A DNA stretch of 64,000 nucleotides, taken from positions 7,119 to 71,118 of the forward strand of contig CACZJZ010000018.1 of the NCBI GenBank assembly GCA_902781655.1, in the 5' to 3' direction. How positions within the stretch are numbered: position 1 is the stretch's first letter; the number at the start of each line of letters is the position of its first letter. The notes under the pieces were generated by a model, which was given only the letters and a program-made list of their open reading frames with translations, was not told the origin of the DNA and ran no database searches. The position numbers and the translations under genes were made by a program. Below, piece by piece: positions 36,515 to 47,854 of the stretch. The DNA is from an uncultured Lachnospiraceae bacterium (GTDB lineage: Bacteria; Bacillota; Clostridia; Lachnospirales; Lachnospiraceae).

Positions 36515-36524
36515 GTTTTCAAAG

Positions 36525-36567
36525 AATCCCGTAAGTGCGCGAGAACCGCGTGTTTACGGGATTTTTT
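36525..36567 (+). terminator. Long hairpin/terminator after tRNA-Lys
   Basis: AATCCCGTAA...TTACGGGATT outer stem, inner GCGCG/CGCGT, T-run. Confidence 0.6.
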
Positions 36568-36692
36568 GCGTCTCACGAGTGAAACTGTAGTACCAAAAAT
36601 TGGACGATTTTCCGACATTTTGGAATAAAAGTTGACACGAAACTTGGCACGAATTGTCATGAAGAGGCTGACTTTTCAAAAAACTTGTTCAT

Positions 36693-36724
36693 GAAGCCCC
36701 TCGCAGAGGGGCTGGTATTGAAAT
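36693..36724 (+). CRISPR. Solitary CRISPR-like repeat, copy 1 (type I-C architecture)
   Basis: GAAGCCCCTCGCAGAGGGGCTGGTATTGAAAT: 32 nt, hairpin at positions 4-20, 3' end ATTGAAAT. No cas genes in the window. Confidence 0.55.
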
Positions 36725-37164
36725 CTTGAAGCGTTTAACACAAAGGGTGCGCTGAAAGTCCGCTCTGCCCTGCTCAGATACACCGCGGAGAAATACCAGG
36801 GAGACGAGCTTATCCGGAGCGTGGAGAAATATCAGGATGCCTATACCGCAGTGGAAAAGACGAAAACGGTAAGTGCTGCCATGGGCGAGATGATGAATGA
36901 CGCCATGTCCGGCATTTTCTCATCGAAGGAAGGCATTCATGATCTTTCAGAATGGCTGAATAAAAAGCAGGGCGTAAAGGAACAGAAATCAGTTCTCGGA
37001 ACGCTGGCGGACCATTTCAGGGGAATAGAGACCGCCATGCGTAATCTGCTCAACAGGGGCACTCTGACTTCATCCGGGCGCCATGCTGCCATGATCGCAG
37101 AGAAGAATGCATCGAAGATCCGGAAGATGATTCTGGACGAGATGGATGTGGCAATCGAAAATGC
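36693..37164 (+). repeat. 472-bp direct repeat (repeat unit plus constant coding block C1), copy 1; copy 2 at 40926-41397
   Basis: Manual alignment gives about 17 substitutions, mostly at third codon positions. Confidence 0.95.
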
Positions 37165-38012
37165 GCAGAATGCGTCGCTGGATGAGAACGCGAAGAGTTC
37201 TGCAGCATATTCAGTCGGCGATTATGTTTTCGGACAAAAATCCTATACGTATGATGCAAAGAACAATGAGTTTGTATCGGATGATGGCCGGATTATCCCA
37301 GTGGCGGACAAAATTTTCTCTGTTAGCGATATAAAGAATGCAGAATACATTGTTCGTGAATTAGTTGCTGATCGAAAAGGTCCGCATATCGAGGAGATTT
37401 TCTAAAAAATATACCCACAACGGATTTATGAAATACGCGCCAGCAAAAGATAAGTCTGTCAAGATGAACATGTCTGCTGATGTGACCGACCTTATCGAGA
37501 ATGCAACCGGACTACGGCATGAACCTGATAAGAATGGGAAACATGGTGTATTCGCTGGAAGAGGATGGAATTATTATGACGCAGATATTGCTGTAAAGTT
37601 CAGAAACGAGTATCAGATATTCCGATCGGAGCTGCAAATAGCGTTATGTTTATGATATAAAGAATCCAAAAAAATCTCATCATGGGGTGCGGCTACTTCG
37701 GAAAATCCTTCTGCCTCACTGACTGGGAAGCCAGCTTTACGCCCCATGAGAGATTTATCTGCTAATAGTGTAGTGCAAGAAAGCAATGAAGTCAATGCAA
37801 AGCAGGATTATCAGGAGATCGAGGATAGTGTTCCGGATGTCAAACGCTTCTCCATCGATGTAGACCATACGGTCCAGCAGACGAAAGACCTGATTGCTGT
37901 TCACAACCTCAATGAGGAGAACCTGCGGTTTTCTATCAATATCAGCGATGCTGAAAAGAAGCAGATTTTTTTGCTACAAAAAATGGAAATGAGATAATTA
38001 TTTATATCGGCC
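36725..38012 (+). pseudogene. Cassette 1: polyvalent-protein fragment (C1 + frameshifted LPD3/BECR-like domain + J)
   Basis: ORF pieces 36821-37405, 37365-37655 and 37746-37997. DLIENAT...KH...GWNYYD and YVYDIK motifs are split across frames. Confidence 0.7.
37872..37969 (+). repeat. 98-bp identical repeat (junction block J); second copy at 42194-42291
   Basis: GTCCAGCAGACGAAAGACC...GAAGCAGATTTT. Its 5' half also matches 39069 onward and its 3' half resembles 40418-40441. Confidence 0.95.
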
Positions 38013-38224
38013 ACGCTGGCGGACCATTTCAGGGGAATAGAGACCGCCATGCGTAATCTGCTCAACAGGGGAACTCTGACTTCATCCGGGCGCCATGCTG
38101 CCATGATCGCGGAGAAGAATGCATCGAAGATCCGTAAGATGATTCTGGACGAGATGGATACTGCTATTGAGAATGCGCAGAATGCGAAGGTCGATGAGAA
38201 CGCGAAGAGCTCGGCGGCATATTC
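38013..38224 (+). repeat. Partial third copy of C1 (matches 37001-37212)
   Basis: ACGCTGGCGGACCATTTCAGGGG...GCATATTC. Confidence 0.93.
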
Positions 38225-40925
38225 TCTCACAAATAAGGACGATTATGCGATCTTCCTTTATCAGAATAATGATGAACAGAAGAGAGACGAGAGGCTAAGA
38301 GATACAAGTATAAAAATAGAAAATGCGAATAATGAAAACTATTCACAGCTTACTAAAGGTCAACTTTCGTCTATCGTGAATGCAAGATCGTTAAAAGAGA
38401 TTGAGAATATTTTCAAAAATTACTGCGGGAAAATAAAAATATGGGGAACGCAGTTCCGCTCTCCTGAACTCGATTTTGAATATGGATTTTCTGTCGGCGC
38501 ATTGCATGAAAGCGTACACAAGCAATCATTAATTAAAACTGGTAGTGAGGAAAATAACAAATTTTTAGCTCTTGCCAAAGCGATTGCGTCTGCAAATAGT
38601 ATCACAAGCAACGCAAAGTTACTTGAGATGCATACGGACCAGGATTATGCGAAAAGCATTGAGCCGAATCACAAAGTAAATTCTAATATTAAATATACTT
38701 ACGAGCTTATTTCCGGCTATATAGATGGGGAAAATATAGTTCCAGTAAAGATTACAGTTAAGGAATATTTAGAAAGAGCGAATACACCAAATATGATGTA
38801 TGTCCTTGAATCATTACCTGCAATAAATAAGGACAGCATCACTATGAAGGCCATCCCTGACATGAATCAGGGAAGACGCGACACTCCGCTGTCCGATAAC
38901 TATAGTTTAGCAGACATTCTTAGCGTTATCAAGAATAGCGCAGCTGATGACGAACGGCTTGATAAGGCAGTCGGCAGATATATTCCCGATCAGTTTGCCA
39001 ATACAACAAAATCATTAACTGAGAATATCCCGACTAAAGCAAAGTTGTCCATTGATGTAGACCAGCCTGTCCAGCAGACGGAAGACCTGATTGCTGTTCA
39101 CAACCTTGACGAGGAGAAACTGCTTGCCGACATCAACGAGCTTGGCGGCTTCCCTGCTCCATCCATTGCTATCATCCGGCAGGGGATGGAACACAATGGA
39201 TATGGGGATATTTCAGTTCTGTTCGAGAAGGACACGATCGACCCGGAACGCAGCAAGTACAACCATGTGTATGGTGGGGATGCGTGGACACCTACATTCC
39301 CGTCCGTTGAGTACGACATCAATAACGATGTTTTTTATAAGGCCAGAGAGAAATTCAAAGCTCTTAAGGGCAGAATCCTGTCTTATCTTTATGAGGAGGC
39401 GCTGCGGGTCAACAATAACGGAACAGGAAACGTCGAATATTCTGGTATGGATAGCTTTGTTCAGAAGATGGAGCAGAACTACGGAATCCGTGCTGCATAT
39501 GTCGCTTCAAAGGGCATTCAAATTGATGACAATGCGAAGCGGACGGAAGTTGGCAAATATGATGATAGCGAAGTAAAGGCGTTCGAGGCAGAGCGCAATA
39601 CCCTGAGTCATATCGGCGTTACGGGCGAAGAGCTTCGCGAAATGCCGGTTAATCAAGTAAAACAGGAATACGGGGATCTTAGACTCCAGGCATATCAGGA
39701 TAGGGCCAATACCATGGACAAGAAGAAAGCGGAACGGTTCATGGAGAAAGCAAAATCCAATTATGATGGCCCGGTCTTCGTGTTCAGAAACATGGTGGAT
39801 AGCATTGCCAATGCGTTGGATTATTACAAAAATGGAAATCCGACGCATACAGAATATGAACGCGATGAGAATGCTATCCGGGAGAAAATTGATTCGAATA
39901 TCAATGAGAAGGACCTTGAAAGCTGGATCAGGGACACCTATGAGGGCCTTGTTGGGAATAAAGGTATCTCTAATGGGGTGGACCCGTATACTCCATCCGG
40001 TAACCGGAGGGGCTTCCGTGCAACACATTATGCATTCATTCTTGATAATGTTGTCCGCGCTATGAGAGAACAGCAGGCCGAAAAAGGAGCTAACGCGTTT
40101 GCTGAAACCGGATTTACTGCTGTATCTACGAAGGATTTCAAGAATATCGATGATATTCACGCAAATGAAGATCCGATACAGAGCCTTTCGGAAGAGGAAT
40201 ATAAGAGCCTGCGAAAGAACATAGACGACAAGGTAGATGAAATTGCAAACTTGAGGCAAAGCCGATGCGGGCCGTCGGTCTGGAAGAAATTGCGGACGTA
40301 ATTGCTCCGGATACTGTCTCTGACGAACTGAAGCAGGCACTTGAGAGCAATAACATTCCGTATGAACTGTACAAGGCAGGAGACAACGCAGACCGTACAC
40401 TGAAGATGAATGCGCATGAAAATCTGCGGTTCTCAATCAATGTTGATAATGAAGGAAACCAGCTGAGCCATGACCAGAAGAACTATTTCAAGAATTCAAA
40501 AGTCCGTGATGATGAAGGAAATCTTCTTGTTATGTATCATGGTACTCCGCAGGGCGGCTTCACAAAGTTCCGTAACGGTCTCACTTATTATTTCACAAGT
40601 AACCCAGAATATGCACAGGAGTATGAAGGAAAGAATCCCCAGCGCGGACAGCAGAGCAATCCTCAGATTTATAAGGTATATCTGAATATTACTCATCCGT
40701 TTGATACCAGAAATGCTGCTGACCGGAAACTGTTCATAAATCAGTATGCGAAGGGAGGATATGCCCTTGGCATTGACCCATACAGCGGCGAGACAGGACT
40801 TTCAGAGAATGGACTTCCGGATTGGAATGAAGCAGATAACATTTATGATTTCCTTGAAGAAAATGACCTGCTCGATAAGTATGATGGTATGGTCATTGAT
40901 GAGGCAGGAAGCGCACGAGGCTCAG
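38013..40925 (+). pseudogene. Cassette 2: polyvalent-protein fragment (partial C1 + LPD3-like domain + LIAVHNL domain + truncated ART-like domain)
   Basis: ORFs 38049-40301 and 40265-40954, with a frame change at about 40250. Motifs LHESVHK...VPVKITVKEY; LIAVHNL...GGFPAPSIA...DAWTPTFP; YHGT...YYFT...VYLNITHP. Confidence 0.72.
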
Positions 40926-40957
40926 GAAGCCCCTCGCAGAGGGGCTGGTATTGAAAT
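40926..40957 (+). CRISPR. Solitary CRISPR-like repeat, copy 2 (identical 32-mer)
   Basis: Same 32 nt as 36693-36724, 4233 bp downstream. Confidence 0.55.
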
Positions 40958-40990
40958 CTTGAAGCGTTAAATACAAAGGGCGCGCTGAAA

Positions 40991-42670
40991 GTGCGCTCTG
41001 CCCTGCTCAGATACGCCGCGGAGAAATACCAGGGAGACGAGCTTATCAGGAGCGTGGAGAAATATCAGGATGCCTATACCGCGGTGGAAAAGACGAAAAC
41101 GGTAAGTGCTGCCATGGGCGAGATGATGAATGACGCCATGTCCGGCATTTTCTCATCGAAGGAAGGTATTCATGATCTTTCTGAATGGCTGGATAGGAAG
41201 CAGGGCGTAAAGGAACAGAAATCAGTTCTCGGCACGCTGGCGGACCATTTCAGGGGAATAGAGACCGCCATGCGTAATCTGCTCAACAGGGGCACTCTGA
41301 CTTCATCCGGGCGCCATGCTGCCATGATCGCGGAGAAGAATGCATCGAAGATCCGGAAGATGATTCTGGACGAGATGGATGTGGCCATAGAGAATGCAGC
41401 GAAAGCGAATGTGGTGGAAGGAGTTGGAGAAAACAAAGTATTTTCTCTCAAACAACAGGAGAAAACAAAATTAAGAGACAGAATAAATCTGGTAATGCAA
41501 GGCAGAAATTTTGAAAATGATATGGTATTTCTGAGAAATACTCCAAAAATATTGATTGATGAAATAGGACTTGAGGATATTCCAATGGCCATGACATCGA
41601 ATCATGTATATTCAGATATCGTAAGCAGAGAAGAAGCAATCAGAAATGGAAGATTCAAAGAGAAAGTAAATTATCACGACTTAGGAAAGTATGGGTTTAT
41701 ACATGCAATCGACAATCTGGATGATCCAATAATCATTGTAAAATCCAGAAACGAGGATGCAAACACAGATATTGTTGCTGTAACGGATACCATTGATAAA
41801 AATGGAAATACCGTACTGGCTGCAATTCGAGTGGGGAAAGAAGGTAACATTTCTGGAACGAGAACCTACATCAATGATATTGGAAGTGTTTATGGAAAGA
41901 AGAATACGATTATTGGATATATTGAGAATGCCTATAGCAAGGGGAGAATATTGTATTTGAACAAAATTAAAGCCAGAAATGAGAATGCACCCGGGTTCCA
42001 ATTACCCGACCGGATCCTCAACACTGGCTTTAAGTCAAATGTAGAACACTATAGGGACATTGTCAATAAAAAACGCATAAATAAACAAAATCAAAATACG
42101 ATAGCAAGCCAGAGAAAGGCAGAAAATGATATATCGAATAAAATCAATGATCTACCAGAAGAAAGACATTTCTCCCTTGATGTGGATGAGCCTGTCCAGC
42201 AGACGAAAGACCTGATTGCTGTTCACAACCTCAATGAGGAGAACCTGCGGTTTTCTATCAATATCAGCGATGCTGAAAAGAAGCAGATTTTAAATGAAGA
42301 GAAAAGACTTCAAAAGCAGATCGATAACTGGAATGGAATTGATGAGTCGATACATTTTGAGGTAGCAAAAACTCCGGATATTCTCAAGAACAAACTGAAT
42401 TTTGAATCTTTGTCCATAGAGATCGACTCTTCAAAGGTGAAGAAAATAAGTGTACAGAAGATAACGAGTACATACGCAAAAGAAAACGCCCAGCATATCC
42501 TTGATCAAAGCGATATTGAGTACGTTAATCAAGACAAAAAAATTACCATCAGCTGGCAGAAACTTACTAGGCTCCAATTGCCGTTCGTGAATCTGAATGC
42601 TGGTGGTTATAATAATACTTTATCACACAGTGCGAACATCAGCAATAACATTCAAACTCCCGGTTTATAA
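40991..42670 (+). CDS. Cassette 3: open polyvalent-protein fragment (C1 + MuF-C-like domain + J + internally deleted second MuF-C-like domain)
   Basis: 559-aa ORF with a GTG start. TPKILI..GLEDIPMAMT..H...HDLG...DPIIIVKS...NDIGSVYGK; later TPDILK and KITSTYAK...LQLP. Confidence 0.65.
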   Translation: MRSALLRYAAEKYQGDELIRSVEKYQDAYTAVEKTKTVSAAMGEMMNDAMSGIFSSKEGIHDLSEWLDRKQGVKEQKSVLGTLADHFRGIETAMRNLLNRGTLTSSGRHAAMIAEKNASKIRKMILDEMDVAIENAAKANVVEGVGENKVFSLKQQEKTKLRDRINLVMQGRNFENDMVFLRNTPKILIDEIGLEDIPMAMTSNHVYSDIVSREEAIRNGRFKEKVNYHDLGKYGFIHAIDNLDDPIIIVKSRNEDANTDIVAVTDTIDKNGNTVLAAIRVGKEGNISGTRTYINDIGSVYGKKNTIIGYIENAYSKGRILYLNKIKARNENAPGFQLPDRILNTGFKSNVEHYRDIVNKKRINKQNQNTIASQRKAENDISNKINDLPEERHFSLDVDEPVQQTKDLIAVHNLNEENLRFSINISDAEKKQILNEEKRLQKQIDNWNGIDESIHFEVAKTPDILKNKLNFESLSIEIDSSKVKKISVQKITSTYAKENAQHILDQSDIEYVNQDKKITISWQKLTRLQLPFVNLNAGGYNNTLSHSANISNNIQTPGL

Positions 42671-42777
42671 TGCAAGAGAAGCGGGATAAATCCCCCGGCG
42701 CGAATATCGCTGACATTAAGAATAATGCGGGATGATAATATAATATTATAGGGAAGGTCTCAGGCAGGAGAGAGGAT

Positions 42778-43551
42778 ATGCAGACTCGTAATTTCAAGTT
42801 TATCATCAGCTATGATGGCACGCGGTATTTTGGCTGGGAGCATCAGCCGAATACGGAACTGACGATTCAGGGAAAGCTGGAGAGGGTGCTCACGGAGATG
42901 CACCAGGCGGAACACGGCGCGCCGCCGGAAAAGCCGATTGTCGTGATCGGCGCGGGTCGCACGGATGCGGGCGTGAGCGCGCGCGCCATGACGGCGAATG
43001 CGCTTCTCGACACGGCAAAGTCGGAGATGGAAATTCAGCAGTACATGAACCGTTATCTGCCGGAGGATATCAGCGTCAGCGAGGTGCGGCAGGCAGCGGA
43101 TCGGTTTCACAGCCGCTTTAAGGCGGTCGGCAAGACATACCGCTATACGCTCTGGTACAGCGGAGACGGGACAAAGCCGGTTTTTGACCGGAAATATGTC
43201 TATGTGCTCGAAGAAAAGCCGGATCTGGCACGCATGGAGGAGGCTGCAGCGCGGCTGTGCGGGATGCATGACTATCGTTCCTTCTGCGGCAATCCGCATA
43301 TCAAAAAATCCACGGTGCGCGTCGTGGACACCATCCGGATTGAGACAAGCGGGCGCTATATTCGTCTTTATTTCCATGGAAACGGATTTCTGCAGAACAT
43401 GGTCCGGATCATGACCGGGACGCTCCTGGAATGCGGATATGGCAAAATCCGTCCTGACGAGATCGACGATATTCTGGAGGCCCGCGACCGGAAGCGGGCC
43501 GGTTTTACCGCGCCTGCCTGCGGGCTGTGTCTGATGAAGGTGGATTATTGA
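42778..43551 (+). CDS. truA: tRNA pseudouridine(38-40) synthase
   Basis: SYDGTRYFGW, GAGRTDAGVSA, GFLQNMVRI, TAPACGLCL. Confidence 0.95.
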   Translation: MQTRNFKFIISYDGTRYFGWEHQPNTELTIQGKLERVLTEMHQAEHGAPPEKPIVVIGAGRTDAGVSARAMTANALLDTAKSEMEIQQYMNRYLPEDISVSEVRQAADRFHSRFKAVGKTYRYTLWYSGDGTKPVFDRKYVYVLEEKPDLARMEEAAARLCGMHDYRSFCGNPHIKKSTVRVVDTIRIETSGRYIRLYFHGNGFLQNMVRIMTGTLLECGYGKIRPDEIDDILEARDRKRAGFTAPACGLCLMKVDY

Positions 43552-43554
43552 AAT

Positions 43555-45612
43555 ATGCTCTATGAAATAAGGGATGGATCTGTGAGTCAGCAGGGGGAGC
43601 CGGTGCTTTCCCACTTTGATTTTGCAATCCGCGGGACAGAAAAAATAGCCATCGTCGGGCGGAACGGCGCGGGCAAGTCGACGCTGCTGGAGGCGCTCGC
43701 GGGAGAAAAGGAAATCGAAATCAACCGCAAAAATCCTGCGTCAGGAGTCTTCCGGTCGAGAGCGTTCACGGTAGGAGTACTGCGGCAGCAGGCCTGTGAA
43801 AACCCGGATGAGACGGTGGAAGACTGCATTATGAGGGGTGTGAAAGCACTCTGGAAGAACGAGCGGGAATTCCCCCCGGAGGCGATGATGCCCGAAGAGA
43901 ACATGACAGTGCAGGGCGTGGCATCCGAAGCGGACACAACAGTGCAGGGCGTGGCATCCGTGGGAGTGAATGACGATATTGCCGAAAGCGCCGGACTGTA
44001 TTCGCGGGAGCGGTATGATTTTGAACAGCGTTATGACCGTATCTTCACAGGATTCGGGTTTTCCCTGGAGGATAAGAAGAAAAAGCTGGGCACGTTTTCC
44101 GGCGGGGAGCAGACGAAGATCTGCCTGATCCGGCTGCTGCTGGAGGAACCGGATGTTCTGGTGCTGGATGAGCCGACCAATCACCTCGATCTCGCGGCGG
44201 TGGAGTGGCTTGAGACATATCTGCGGGCGTATTCGAAGGCGGTGGTGTGCGTGTCGCACGACCGGTATTTTCTCGATCAGACGGCGGAGGTGGTCTGGGA
44301 GGTGTCGGGCGGGCGGCTGACCCGGTATGTCGGAGGATATACAGCGTATCGGGCGGAGAAGCAAAAGCGGGCTGCAAAGGCAGCGAAGGCTTATGAGGCG
44401 CAGCAGGCGGAGATTGCGCGGCTGAGCGACCTGATCCGGAAATTCCGCGGCAAACCGCGCAAGGCCTCGTTTGCCCGGTCCCGCGCCAAAATTCTGGAAC
44501 GCATGGAGCGGATGGAAAAGCCGGATGCGGATGAGGCTGTCATTCACACAGGCGCCATTTTGCCAGCCCGCCCGGGCAGCAGGTGGGTGGTGGAATGTGA
44601 GGATTTGAAGATCGGATATGACCATCCGATCCGGGAGCTGTCACTGCGCATCAGGCGGGGACAGAAGATCGGAATCATCGGGCCGAACGGCACCGGAAAG
44701 TCAACCTTTCTCAAGACGGTGGCGGGTCTCCTTCCATCGATTGCGGGAAAATGCAGGGTAGGGGAAAATGTTGATCTCGCTTATTTTGACCAGATGACGG
44801 CGCGTTTCACGTCGGACAAGACGGTGATCGACTGGTTTCACGATCAGTTTCCGGCGATGGAGATGGGAGAGACGAGGCGAGTTCTCGCCGGGTTTCTGTT
44901 CCGGGGAGACGATTGTGGAAAACCGGTGTCGGGCTTGTCGGGCGGAGAAAAGGCACGGCTGATGCTGGCGGCGATTCTGGAGAGGCGGCCGAATTTTCTT
45001 GTGATGGACGAGCCGACTAACAATATGGACATTCCGGCGAAGGAAACACTGGAGTCGATCTTCCGGAGCTTTCAGGGAGCAATTTTGTTTGTGTCGCATG
45101 ACCGTTACTTTCTCAGCCAAGTGGCGGAGGCACTGCTGGTGTTTGAACCGGGGACGAACAGAGTATGGTACTATCCCGGGAACTATCGGCATTACAAGGA
45201 ACGAAAGGATCGCGTTCAGGCGGGGGAGGATGCCGATCTGCTGCGGACAGCGGAGGAACAGAGGCTGATCGAGGGGCTGCGTTCTGTTCCGAAGGGCGAG
45301 AAGGGGATGCTGCGGCGCATTTCGGATGCGGAGCAGGAGTTTGACTGGCGCTTTGCGGTGAACCGCACCGGGCGTGAGACTGCGGAGCAGGCGTTCGCAG
45401 AGGCTTTGGAGCGCGCGGAATATGCGGATGCGGAGCGGGCGCGGGATATCTGGACCCGGACGCTTCTTGACTGGTATGATATCTGGCTCGACCGGGAGGC
45501 GTACCGGCACGGCGTTTCTGCGCCGGAAGAAGGGATGAGCAGTGAGGAAGAGGAATGTTCTGCACAGGAACAGAATGCGGCCGGACAGGACGGACGACAG
45601 GCCGGCAGATAA
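43555..45612 (+). CDS. ABC-F family ATPase
   Basis: Two ABC cassettes (GRNGAGKST / FSGGEQTK and GPNGTGKST / LSGGEKAR), no transmembrane domain. Confidence 0.9.
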   Translation: MLYEIRDGSVSQQGEPVLSHFDFAIRGTEKIAIVGRNGAGKSTLLEALAGEKEIEINRKNPASGVFRSRAFTVGVLRQQACENPDETVEDCIMRGVKALWKNEREFPPEAMMPEENMTVQGVASEADTTVQGVASVGVNDDIAESAGLYSRERYDFEQRYDRIFTGFGFSLEDKKKKLGTFSGGEQTKICLIRLLLEEPDVLVLDEPTNHLDLAAVEWLETYLRAYSKAVVCVSHDRYFLDQTAEVVWEVSGGRLTRYVGGYTAYRAEKQKRAAKAAKAYEAQQAEIARLSDLIRKFRGKPRKASFARSRAKILERMERMEKPDADEAVIHTGAILPARPGSRWVVECEDLKIGYDHPIRELSLRIRRGQKIGIIGPNGTGKSTFLKTVAGLLPSIAGKCRVGENVDLAYFDQMTARFTSDKTVIDWFHDQFPAMEMGETRRVLAGFLFRGDDCGKPVSGLSGGEKARLMLAAILERRPNFLVMDEPTNNMDIPAKETLESIFRSFQGAILFVSHDRYFLSQVAEALLVFEPGTNRVWYYPGNYRHYKERKDRVQAGEDADLLRTAEEQRLIEGLRSVPKGEKGMLRRISDAEQEFDWRFAVNRTGRETAEQAFAEALERAEYADAERARDIWTRTLLDWYDIWLDREAYRHGVSAPEEGMSSEEEECSAQEQNAAGQDGRQAGR

Positions 45613-46318: not shown

Positions 46319-47779
46319 ATGTCGGATACTATGGTGGTCACACGTTTTGCTCCGTCGCCGACGGGGTTCATGCATGTCGGAAATCTGCGCACGGCATTGT
46401 ATTCTTATCTGATTGCAAAGCACAGCGGGGGTAAATTTATTCTCCGGATCGAGGATACGGATCAGGAACGGTTTGTGGAGGGCGCGACGGAGGTGATTTT
46501 GAATACGCTCCGGATGACGGGACTCCAGTATGACGAGGGACCGGATGTCGGGGGGCCGAACGGGCCATATATTCAGAGCCAGCGCAAGGAGATTTATCAG
46601 AAATATGCGAAGTGGCTGGTCGATCACGACTATGCCTATTACTGCTTCTGCTCCGAGGAGCGGCTTCGCTCGCTGCATGATGAGAACGGAATCGGCGGGT
46701 ATGACCGCCACTGCCGCAACCTTCCGAAGGAGGAGATTGAGGCACACCTGAAAAACGGAGACCCTTATGTCATTCGGCAGAAAATGCCCCTCACCGGGAC
46801 AACCACGTATTTTGACGAGGTATATGGCGAGCAGTCGGTGGAAAACAAGGAGCTGCAGGACCAGATTCTCATGAAGGCCGACGGTTACCCCACCTATAAT
46901 TTTGCCCACATCGTGGATGACCATCTGATGGGCGTCAATTATGTCGTGCGGGGCAATGAGTATATCACCTCGACGCCAAAATATGTTCTGCTGTACGACG
47001 CGTTCGGCTGGGAGCGCCCGCACTACGTGCATCTGCCGCTGCTGTGCGGCAAGAATCCGGACGGATCTGTCTCGAAGCTGTCGAAGCGGCACGGCGCGGT
47101 ATCGTTTGAGGAGCTGGTAAAACAGGGATATCTGCCTGACGCCATCGTCAATTATCTTGCGTTTCTCGGCTGGGCGCCGAAGGACTCGACGCAGGAGATC
47201 TTCTCACTGGAGGAGCTGGTAAAAGTTTTCACCATCGACGGGATTGGCAAATCCAACGCGGTATTCGATTACGAGAAACTGAAATGGTTTAATGCAGAAT
47301 ATCTGAAGAAGCTTAACCCGGAGGACTTCTTTGAGCGGATCAGGCCGATCTGGGCTGCAGCGGGTATGCCGGCCTATGTCAATCAGAAGAAACTTGCGGG
47401 TCTTGTGCAGTCGCGTGTCAGCACACTGAACGAGAGCGCCGATATTGTGGATTTTGTCCTGAGTCGGCTCCCGTACGATGCGGAGCTGTATACCAATAAG
47501 AAGAACAAGACAACGCCCGAGCTGTGCCTTCAGATTCTGAAGACCGTGCGTCCCGCGCTGGATGCGGCTCCTGCGTGGGAAAACGATGCCCTGTTCGAAC
47601 TCCTTCAGCAGACCGCGGCGGACCTCGGCGTGAAGAAAAATGCCGTCATGTGGGCTGTCCGCATCGCAATTGCGCGCAAGGCCGTGACGCCGGGCGGCGC
47701 CACAGAGCTGATGGAAGTGCTTGGCAGAGAGGAGAGCCTGTCCAGGATGGACCAGGCAATACGAGAACTCGAGGCATGA
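46319..47779 (+). CDS. gltX: Glutamate--tRNA ligase
   Basis: RFAPSPTGFMHVGN (HIGH) and KLSKRHG (KMSKS). Confidence 0.96.
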   Translation: MSDTMVVTRFAPSPTGFMHVGNLRTALYSYLIAKHSGGKFILRIEDTDQERFVEGATEVILNTLRMTGLQYDEGPDVGGPNGPYIQSQRKEIYQKYAKWLVDHDYAYYCFCSEERLRSLHDENGIGGYDRHCRNLPKEEIEAHLKNGDPYVIRQKMPLTGTTTYFDEVYGEQSVENKELQDQILMKADGYPTYNFAHIVDDHLMGVNYVVRGNEYITSTPKYVLLYDAFGWERPHYVHLPLLCGKNPDGSVSKLSKRHGAVSFEELVKQGYLPDAIVNYLAFLGWAPKDSTQEIFSLEELVKVFTIDGIGKSNAVFDYEKLKWFNAEYLKKLNPEDFFERIRPIWAAAGMPAYVNQKKLAGLVQSRVSTLNESADIVDFVLSRLPYDAELYTNKKNKTTPELCLQILKTVRPALDAAPAWENDALFELLQQTAADLGVKKNAVMWAVRIAIARKAVTPGGATELMEVLGREESLSRMDQAIRELEA

Positions 47780-47787
47780 GCGGGGTT

Positions 47788-47854
47788 TTGTCCCTAACGA
47801 GTTTAGCTTGTTTGGTACAATTTGTACCAAACAAGCTAAACTCGTTAGGGACAA
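47788..47854. repeat. Perfect 67-bp palindrome (33-bp arms, 1-nt centre)
   Basis: TTGTCCCTAACGAGTTTAGCTTGTTTGGTACAA-T-TTGTACCAAACAAGCTAAACTCGTTAGGGACAA. Confidence 0.95.

Follow-up and report, generated by a model that had tools for sequence, protein, structure and literature searches.

Exact copies of a foreign type I-C CRISPR repeat at the phage-DNA joints of a Lachnospiraceae chromosomal island

We analyzed a stretch of 64,000 nucleotides, referred to below as the window, from contig CACZJZ010000018.1 (GenBank assembly GCA_902781655.1) of an uncultured Lachnospiraceae bacterium; positions are those of the window and carry the prefix w where confusion might arise. A 6.0-kb island in this window contains two exact copies of a 32-nt repeat, R (GAAGCCCCTCGCAGAGGGGCTGGTATTGAAAT; 36693–36724 and 40926–40957, both on the + strand), which the initial annotation, made from the letters alone, had located correctly. 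R is letter for letter the repeat of type I-C CRISPR arrays found elsewhere, and all joints of the island lie on its borders within a base, phage coding DNA following both copies flush at the same phage nucleotide.

Site and content of the island

The window genome is 2.76 Mb long and 99.5% complete, and the sources of the compared assemblies are all metagenome-derived. Named in the list below are the closest same-genus genome (G008; truA 92% identical), a sister strain (L046; ~97% identical flank from truA onward), and a 16-kb phage contig (L043).

36441–36515, + strand: tRNA-Lys(ttt), last gene of a tRNA cluster in the native chromosome left of the island (ARAGORN; same cluster in G008).
36516–36692, + strand: native intergenic DNA, a terminator-like hairpin (36527–36567) followed by AT-rich sequence, conserved in G008 up to R1.
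36693–36724, + strand: R1, an exact foreign type I-C repeat at the left border of the insertion; folds as 2 nt, an 8-bp stem and an 11-nt tail.
36725–37164, + strand: A1, a phage polyvalent segment that starts mid-domain (LEAFNTKG), flush with R1; 94.8% identity to L043 7676–8115.
37165–37969, + strand: rest of phage piece 1, LPD3-like plus an "RFSxxVD...LIAVHNL" linker; collinear with P0007-type genes.
38007–40925, + strand: phage piece 2, which opens with half of an A domain (third copy, C-terminal part) and continues with an unnamed domain, a linker, a PBECR5 nuclease and ART-PolyVal (self-BLAST, Pfam).
40926–40957, + strand: R2, identical to R1, with the TGA that ends the ART frame; the ART–R–A joint is also present in L046.
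40958–41397, + strand: A2, the same phage segment with the same start nucleotide as A1 in a different allele; 92.9% identity to L043.
41398–42670, + strand: rest of phage piece 3, a MuF_C domain, linker and tail (Pfam).
42671–42695, + strand: 25 nt at the right border, following the last stop codon, of no assigned origin; native DNA from ~42696 (comparison with G008 and L046).
42778–43551, + strand: truA, in the native chromosome right of the island (translation; Pfam PseudoU_synth_1).
Sequences of the three joints of the island: TTGTTCATGAAGCCCC, GGCTCAGGAAGCCCC and ATTGAAATCTTGAAGCG.

BLAST and by-eye alignment against G008 placed the insertion at ~36693–42695, between tRNA-Lys and truA. The site is empty in G008, where tRNA-Lys lies ~200 bp from truA; homology runs to w36693 (...TCATG/, the slash here and below marking a border) and picks up again at ~42696–42705. 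The left border of the insertion coincides with the 5' end of R1 within 1 nt, the first inserted base being base 1 or 2 of R1. Since the G008 homology extends to w36693, the DNA at 36516–36692 is native intergenic sequence and not a CRISPR leader. The conserved ...AATATTGCT end that is present in all R-type leaders is missing from it, and no R-family leader–repeat junction lies upstream of R1. Formally, the island has the layout repeat – 4.2 kb – repeat – 1.7 kb. A third, degenerate repeat considered at the right border (GAAGCGGGATAAATCCCC...) was rejected as no better than shuffled sequence, and a Hamming scan revealed no additional degenerate repeats inside the island.

Two further independent assemblies (L039 and L040) carry the island with the same joints, which brings the number of assemblies to three. 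Their sole differences in layout from the window are an additional 47 bp at 37373 and an additional 23 bp at 37643; piece 1 of the window is broken by deletions at these two places, and when the missing DNA is restored, two frameshifts disappear and the first two frames merge into a 303–323-aa open reading frame. The sister strain L046 has a variant island in which an ART–R–A joint adjoins truA; its copy of R has one substitution, in the loop. Because the structure is found in independent assemblies and, as a variant, in the sister strain, we conclude that it is not an artefact of assembly.

Apart from pieces of a polyvalent gene, the island holds no phage genes. The DNA from 36722 to 42670 translates not as one continuous open reading frame but as a chain of at least five frames broken by stops, frameshifts, and rearrangements, in which Pfam recognizes the phage polyvalent domains LPD3, PBECR5, ART-PolyVal, and MuF_C. 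An exhaustive search yielded 3038 protein homologues; of the best 150 listed, the majority have lengths of ~2000–4500 aa. The closest intact homologue, P0003 (3492 aa), is encoded on L043 beside holin and lysozyme genes, and A1 maps to positions ~1014–1160 of the 3513-position profile phrog_22978. Both long units of the island are fragments of the giant polyvalent (MuF-type) gene of phages against which the host's own CRISPR array is directed at present. The direct repeat extends beyond R for ~470 bp at 96% identity (36689–37164 against 40922–41397); partial copies of the same phage module are present at 38007–38224, and copies of the linker at 37833, 39030, and 42155. A2 and piece 3 together form an open 559-aa frame with a GTG start at 40991, called as protein P0002 in three contigs. 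Phage-derived frames, at least the 559-aa A2–MuF_C frame, may be expressed. Short A-domain proteins beginning at the start point of the A segments were not found outside the island. The genome has no L043-related prophage, only the island and spacers matching L043, and no Rfam family matches the island.

The repeat and the CRISPR loci of the host

With up to three mismatches allowed, R occurs only at these two places in the window (0 expected from shuffles) and in the whole genome. The spacing of the two copies is 4233 bp (4303 bp in the other assemblies) versus ~65 bp in an ordinary array, and the island has no spacers of ~30–40 nt at regular spacing. When one genome per prokaryotic species was scanned, the 29-nt core of R was present in a single record, that of Lachnospiraceae bacterium YH-ros2226. 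Its array comprises ~49 units with 31–35-nt spacers and follows cas1 and an AT-rich leader, and the unit boundaries correspond to the 32-mer exactly. A metagenome scan in which any loop sequence was allowed gave 12 loci with an R-type repeat. Eleven of them are regular arrays (one contig has ~150 repeats), in most of which the hairpin loop is the sole difference from R, and upstream of one array stand genes scored with NCBIfam as type I-C Cas3, Cas5c, Cas8c, Cas7/Csd2, Cas4, and Cas1c. Since R is identical to the array unit of YH-ros2226 and its loop variants stand beside a type I-C cas operon, we conclude that R is a genuine type I-C repeat. The initial annotation had called it "type I-C-like", which gives the type correctly and understates the identity, and had proposed a search for the cognate array; this array exists, but in another organism (YH-ros2226 and metagenome contigs), the host array having a different repeat.

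R is predicted to fold with a minimum free energy of −15.1 kcal/mol (..((((((((...))))))))..........), as 2 nt, an 8-bp stem, and an 11-nt tail ending in AUUGAAAU. Its end is ATTGAAAT, as in type I-C repeats that are processed by Cas5c (ATTGAAAT/C). That the hairpin belongs to a diversity-generating retroelement or is a terminator was considered and rejected: the differences are not adenine-specific, a T-run is lacking, and the unit is the repeat of an array.

R was absent from 40 relatives, from 400 sampled genomes of the order, and from the 2.9 million viral contigs of IMG/VR, and the search for it gave no DNA or protein matches in INPHARED and PLSDB. An 18-mer junction probe gave four hits, which were rejected as chance matches. 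The hosts of R arrays are not close kin of the window organism, the array flanks being only ~66% identical to its genome. In the metagenome, R-type repeats were also seen in disturbed surroundings. On L055 (OCVV011244822.1, 436–467, minus strand) a single exact R stands beside an IS21-family element (IstA/IstB) and an antitoxin-like gene and is probably the end of an array disrupted by the insertion sequence (IS); on L057 (~1760–1810) an R-type array opens with a repeat cut down to its 3' 20 nt. Hence, as this truncated first repeat and the IS-interrupted site illustrate, ordinary rearrangements ignore repeat borders.

The statement that there was no array and no cas genes holds within the window and fails genome-wide. 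Host contig C8 carries a complete type I-C operon, cas3-cas5c-cas8c-cas7-cas4-cas1(-cas2), and a 61-repeat array (C8:256–4252; repeat GTCGGGTCCCGCAAGGGACCTGTGGATTGAAAT); a second array, of another type, is present on contig C26 (C26:4829–5504; ~10 repeats, GTGTCAATGCCCTTAATCGGGCTCTCTCCATTTCTAC). R and the host type I-C repeat agree in their 3'-terminal 8 nt and in the predicted fold (2 nt, 8-bp stem, loop, 11-nt tail); about half of the positions differ. Host and R-type Cas proteins are 24–39% identical (Cas5c, 28%; Cas1, 36%; Cas1, Cas2, Cas4, and Cas5c together span 28–39%).

The three leader-proximal (newest) host spacers and spacer 43 match L043 at 3410, 3884, 5216, and 953, with agreement ranging from 30 of 33 to 35 of 35 positions. 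Each of the four targets has a 5'-TTC flank, and one lies inside the polyvalent gene; the targets of the newest spacers are 2.4–4.3 kb from the point at which L043 DNA is fused to R. Because the newest spacers match L043 with TTC, the phage family behind the island infects this host and is targeted now. The matches indicate recent, probably primed, adaptation against the family that supplied the island. No host spacer matches the island itself. Among 372 unique spacers from 13 R-array loci, a limited sample, none matches the island or the phage; no R-array spacer matches the window organism's own genome, and viral matches for two leader-proximal R-array spacers, sought as a way to the protospacer-adjacent motif (PAM) of R-type arrays, were not found.

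Joints at the repeat borders and variation among the phage segments

DNA homology to L043 begins at w36725 and w40958, in each case the first base after R, and both bases correspond to L043 7676, so the same mid-gene phage position does follow each copy, as initially proposed. The intact phage reads ...HTLIHEGMGEV/LEAFNTKG here, and the break falls within a domain. Upstream of the joint the L043 DNA is catgagggcatgggcgaggtg, without the hairpin or ATTGAAAT that the initial annotation had suggested looking for in intact phages. This comparison with intact L043 confirms that R is fused flush to captured phage coding DNA on a kilobase scale. The 3-nt flank in the phage is GTG, a Val codon kept in P0003 and P0007, and not the TTC/TTN PAM that had been put forward as a mark of spacer origin and that flanks, as TTC, all four targets of host spacers in the same phage. 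With no TTC/TTN flank and none of the 372 R-array spacers matching, a canonical spacer origin is unsupported.

On the other side of R2, the native ART continuation (L044/L045) reads GGCTCA/AATGGCTTCTCC..., compared with GGCTCA/G/GAAGCCCC in the window. The native ART coding DNA ends at 40924/5, at most one base short of the start of R2. Three kinds of joint can therefore be distinguished: chromosome to the 5' border of R1, ART to the 5' border of R2, and the 3' border of R to the same phage nucleotide (twice). All of them fall on R borders within a base, and no remnants of a leader or of spacers are left at them. Both 5' flanks read TCA(T/G): GTTCAT/GAAGCC (36687–36692) and GGCTCAG/GAAGCC (40920–40925). 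This shared motif may be due to chance (about 1 in 64) or to a target preference of the agent that made the joints.

The in-frame TGA within the repeat, described initially as closing the upstream frame, is real. Recoding of this stop codon, or read-through, was rejected as an explanation of the arrangement: R is flanked by parts of polyvalent genes (L044, L043) that are not adjacent. In the ART frame R2 encodes SPSQRGWY followed by the stop, which aligns in register with the ART-PolyVal C terminus of distant homologues (...GGVTSRGFAW). Because the closest native ART (L044) reads GSNGFSY and has a different length there, this look-alike ending of the 229-aa ART frame is probably a coincidence.

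The phage-derived copies differ mostly at synonymous positions. A1 and A2 show 17 differences, the first of them 12 nt from R; ~12.5 are synonymous and 4.5 non-synonymous (ratio of non-synonymous to synonymous divergence, pN/pS, 0.10). For A2 against the L046 copy the values, computed on alignments, are 17.5 synonymous and 6.5 non-synonymous (pN/pS 0.11), and ART differs from native ART with a pN/pS of 0.12. Since the differences are mostly synonymous, simple neutral decay does not account for them. Such filtered variation would be expected if the copies came from, or were converted by, different functional phage alleles, or if some of the frames are expressed and under selection. In L040, six changes in copy 1 (36934–37000) all go toward copy 2, a pattern resembling gene conversion between A1 and A2.

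We also considered the divergence between the window and L046 as a clock for the import of phage alleles and abandoned it, as the synonymous divergence (pS) of host genes ranges from 0.03 to 0.27 between these strains. The highest value is that of gltX (window 46319–47779, L046 6451–7911), with 0.27 versus 0.03–0.06 for its neighbours truA and ABC-F, which suggests that strains have recombined within the host backbone.

The organization of the island recalls that of orphan toxin cassettes of contact-dependent inhibition (CDI)/Rhs systems. The constant block, the A domain, occurs three times, every time with another module behind it (LPD3, PBECR5 plus ART, and MuF_C), variation is largely synonymous, and L040 gives evidence that copies recombine with each other. 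In contrast to these cassettes, the modules are those of phage polyvalent proteins, most frames are broken, immunity genes are not evident, and a CRISPR repeat heads the blocks.

Candidate origins of the repeat–phage fusions

We tentatively favor the view that the island is a leaderless orphan piece of a foreign type I-C array with kilobase-long phage "spacers", joined by chemistry of the Cas1–Cas2 type, while allowing that this view may well be wrong. At spacer integration, Cas1–Cas2 attacks the phosphodiester bonds at the leader–repeat and repeat–spacer boundaries, and the repeat is duplicated. An integrase-type origin is favored because every joint of the island lies on one of the two borders of R, at the bonds that Cas1–Cas2 attacks, and because illegitimate recombination ignores repeat borders. 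We infer that one-ended integration, yielding a giant spacer, best fits the geometry of the junctions. Taken as sequence evidence, the repeat-bordered joints suggest that DNA of kilobase length can become attached to the ends of a repeat through the action of the CRISPR machinery. In this mechanism, long phage DNA would have been joined at the borders of R by integrase-type transesterification, either as a half-site reaction or as two independent one-ended reactions; alternatively, DNA ends made by integrase nicks at the repeat borders could have been end-joined. Homologous recombination among the repeated phage modules would later have reshuffled the island. A transcript of R, if made, would have the right fold for cleavage by Cas5c into an 11-nt handle, GGUAUUGAAAU, followed by a 5' end that matches the phage.

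Several points weigh against an integrase-type origin. We know of no case in which kilobase-long DNA was integrated by Cas1–Cas2 in vivo, and the complex normally measures prespacers of ~35 bp. A1 and A2 are different alleles and yet start at the same phage nucleotide, which integration of random ends alone does not explain; their identical start needs an extra step, such as duplication followed by conversion, or a directed process. This genome contains neither an R-type cas operon nor remnants of one. Because R-type cas genes are absent and the host Cas1, Cas2, Cas4, and Cas5c are only 28–39% identical to their R-type counterparts, the integrase required by this reading is either not there or of doubtful specificity. 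No repeat bounds the island on the right, the Hamming scan for degenerate repeats having shown no resemblance of 42671–42695 to R above chance, and upstream of R1 and R2 there is no consensus promoter.

Compared with type I-C arrays, the island has the identical 32-nt repeat with its 8-bp stem, 11-nt tail, and ATTGAAAT end, in direct orientation and with phage DNA between and after the copies. It differs from them in having two repeats only, 4233 bp apart, without a leader, cognate cas genes, or a PAM at the source site, and in that the first repeat abuts the chromosome and the right end has none. As a CRISPR memory, the island probably does nothing essential at present, although we attach little weight to this assessment.

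An unlikely alternative, and the best of those we considered, is homologous recombination between spacers and protospacers, which has reportedly been observed between staphylococcal phages and CRISPR loci. Ordinary spacers of an R array would have matched the phage, one starting CTTGAAGCG... and one ending ...GGCTCAG; crossovers within these 35-nt spacers would have fused phage DNA to repeats, and the hybrid would later have been transferred to the present site. Flush joints between R and phage DNA, and two units that start at the same phage nucleotide, follow by construction from such an event, and the three newest host spacers attest that this phage family does meet CRISPR in the community. 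The prediction of bona fide spacers at the joints, for example a 31–36-nt CTTGAAGCGTT..., is at odds with the absence of matches to phage, island, or host genome among the 372 unique R-array spacers. TTC is lacking 5' of each of the three junction-adjacent 31–36-nt stretches, the flank in the phage being the conserved Val codon GTG, and since the alleles differ from 12 nt after R, almost no spacer homology is left for a crossover. The joint between chromosome and R1 would require a self-matching spacer, and the R-array hosts, with flanks only ~66% identical, are distant. The island thus resembles the hybrids of phage and CRISPR DNA that are said to arise in this way in that a repeat is joined exactly to phage DNA at the start of a would-be protospacer, and departs from them in the lack of a PAM and of a matching spacer, in the divergence of the allele from 12 nt onward, and in a repeat–chromosome joint that recombination does not predict.

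Somewhat less plausible still is that a phage carried R as a solitary repeat unit (SRU), a candidate RNA anti-CRISPR (Racr), in its polyvalent region as a mimic of type I-C hosts, and that the island is a decayed piece of this phage. Many viruses and prophages carry SRUs (Faure et al., 2019, as cited in PMC10651486) that imitate repeats of the host; 83% of these units match the CRISPR subtype of the host, and a validated Racr of type I-C exists (Camara-Wilpert et al., 2023, PMC10651486). R resembles them in lying outside an array, with no other repeat within 100 bp, in its association with phage DNA, and in the match of subtypes, the host system here being I-C; an open frame with a plausible GTG start also begins 34 nt after R2. 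R differs from SRUs in its position, flush in broken coding DNA and at a chromosome junction. It cuts two protein domains mid-way rather than standing in a phage intergenic region behind a promoter, and the DNA immediately left of R1 is native chromosome and not phage. Nor is R a mimic of the host repeat, from which it departs at about half of the positions: it equals the repeat of a distant organism. It is absent from the 2.9 million viral contigs and, in metagenome contigs, occurs in arrays only, apart from the one IS21-disrupted site, and short A-domain proteins that begin at this start point are confined to the island. Analysis of the context allows a Racr-like role of R as a possibility in surroundings that are atypical for one.

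We consider it improbable that the island works as a mini-array with a self-refreshing guide. Under this proposal host Cas5c would process R transcripts, the first ~35 nt of A1 or A2 would guide Cascade for interference or priming, and incoming phage alleles would overwrite the guide. The complete type I-C operon of the host is evidently active, its newest spacers matching the phage at 97–100% with TTC PAMs; R and the host repeat have the same fold and the same 3'-terminal AUUGAAAU; the repeat is intact in two strains; and the mainly synonymous differences among A1, A2, and the sister copy (pN/pS ~0.1) are those expected of imported phage alleles. Against this, the pS of 0.03 to 0.27 for host genes between the strains means that divergence of the island is no proof of import, and with divergence at this level the preservation of 32 nt carries no significance. 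The one intact phage available for comparison shows GTG, hence no PAM, and 7 mismatches in the first 35–37 nt, including seed position 3. A downstream repeat that would set the 3' end is missing, as is a consensus promoter, and host Cas5c is only 28% identical to the cognate protein. We give equally little credence to a combined proposal, in which Cas1–Cas2 integrated giant spacers and the fusions were kept as processed guide or priming RNA and renewed by exchange with infecting phages, so that the island would be an immune memory refreshed by recombination. Such a memory would fit the three newest host spacers, which target the same phage 2.4–4.3 kb from the fusion point.

Coincidence (a chance hairpin) or mis-joining of contigs via the shared 32-mer can practically be dismissed, for although all sources are metagenome-derived assemblies, a 32-of-32 identity to an array repeat cannot arise twice by chance, and the same structure recurs in independent assemblies, one of them made with k=141, a k-mer too long for a 32-nt repeat to produce a mis-join, and in the diverged sister strain.

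Viruses reportedly also carry mini-CRISPR arrays that serve in conflicts between viruses. Like these, the island is very short and leaderless and has a "spacer" that matches a conserved gene of related viruses; unlike them, its units are kilobases long and sit in 6 kb of chromosomal DNA that holds no other viral genes.

Orphan or solitary repeats and phage–CRISPR hybrids are already known, and the new aspect here is the unusual geometry of the junctions. The origin of the solitary CRISPR repeats found in mobile DNA is not known; in the present case a foreign repeat is joined to three partners, namely the chromosome, one phage domain, and (twice) another phage domain. If integrase chemistry made these joints, Cas1–Cas2 can occasionally splice long DNA in vivo, which would offer a way for solitary repeat units to arise and for repeats to move from one genome to another. 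The locus lies in a live arms race and is a natural case in which orphan repeat–phage fusions might feed RNAs resembling CRISPR RNAs, or priming. Even as a mere fossil, it would record horizontal transfer of a CRISPR repeat without cas genes or leader.

Outside the island, the window contains a perfect 67-bp palindrome at 47788–47854 (33-nt arms with 1 nt between them). In the ABC-F ATPase gene, a 33-bp tandem duplication at 43892–43957 (88% identical) adds an in-frame repeat of 11 residues.

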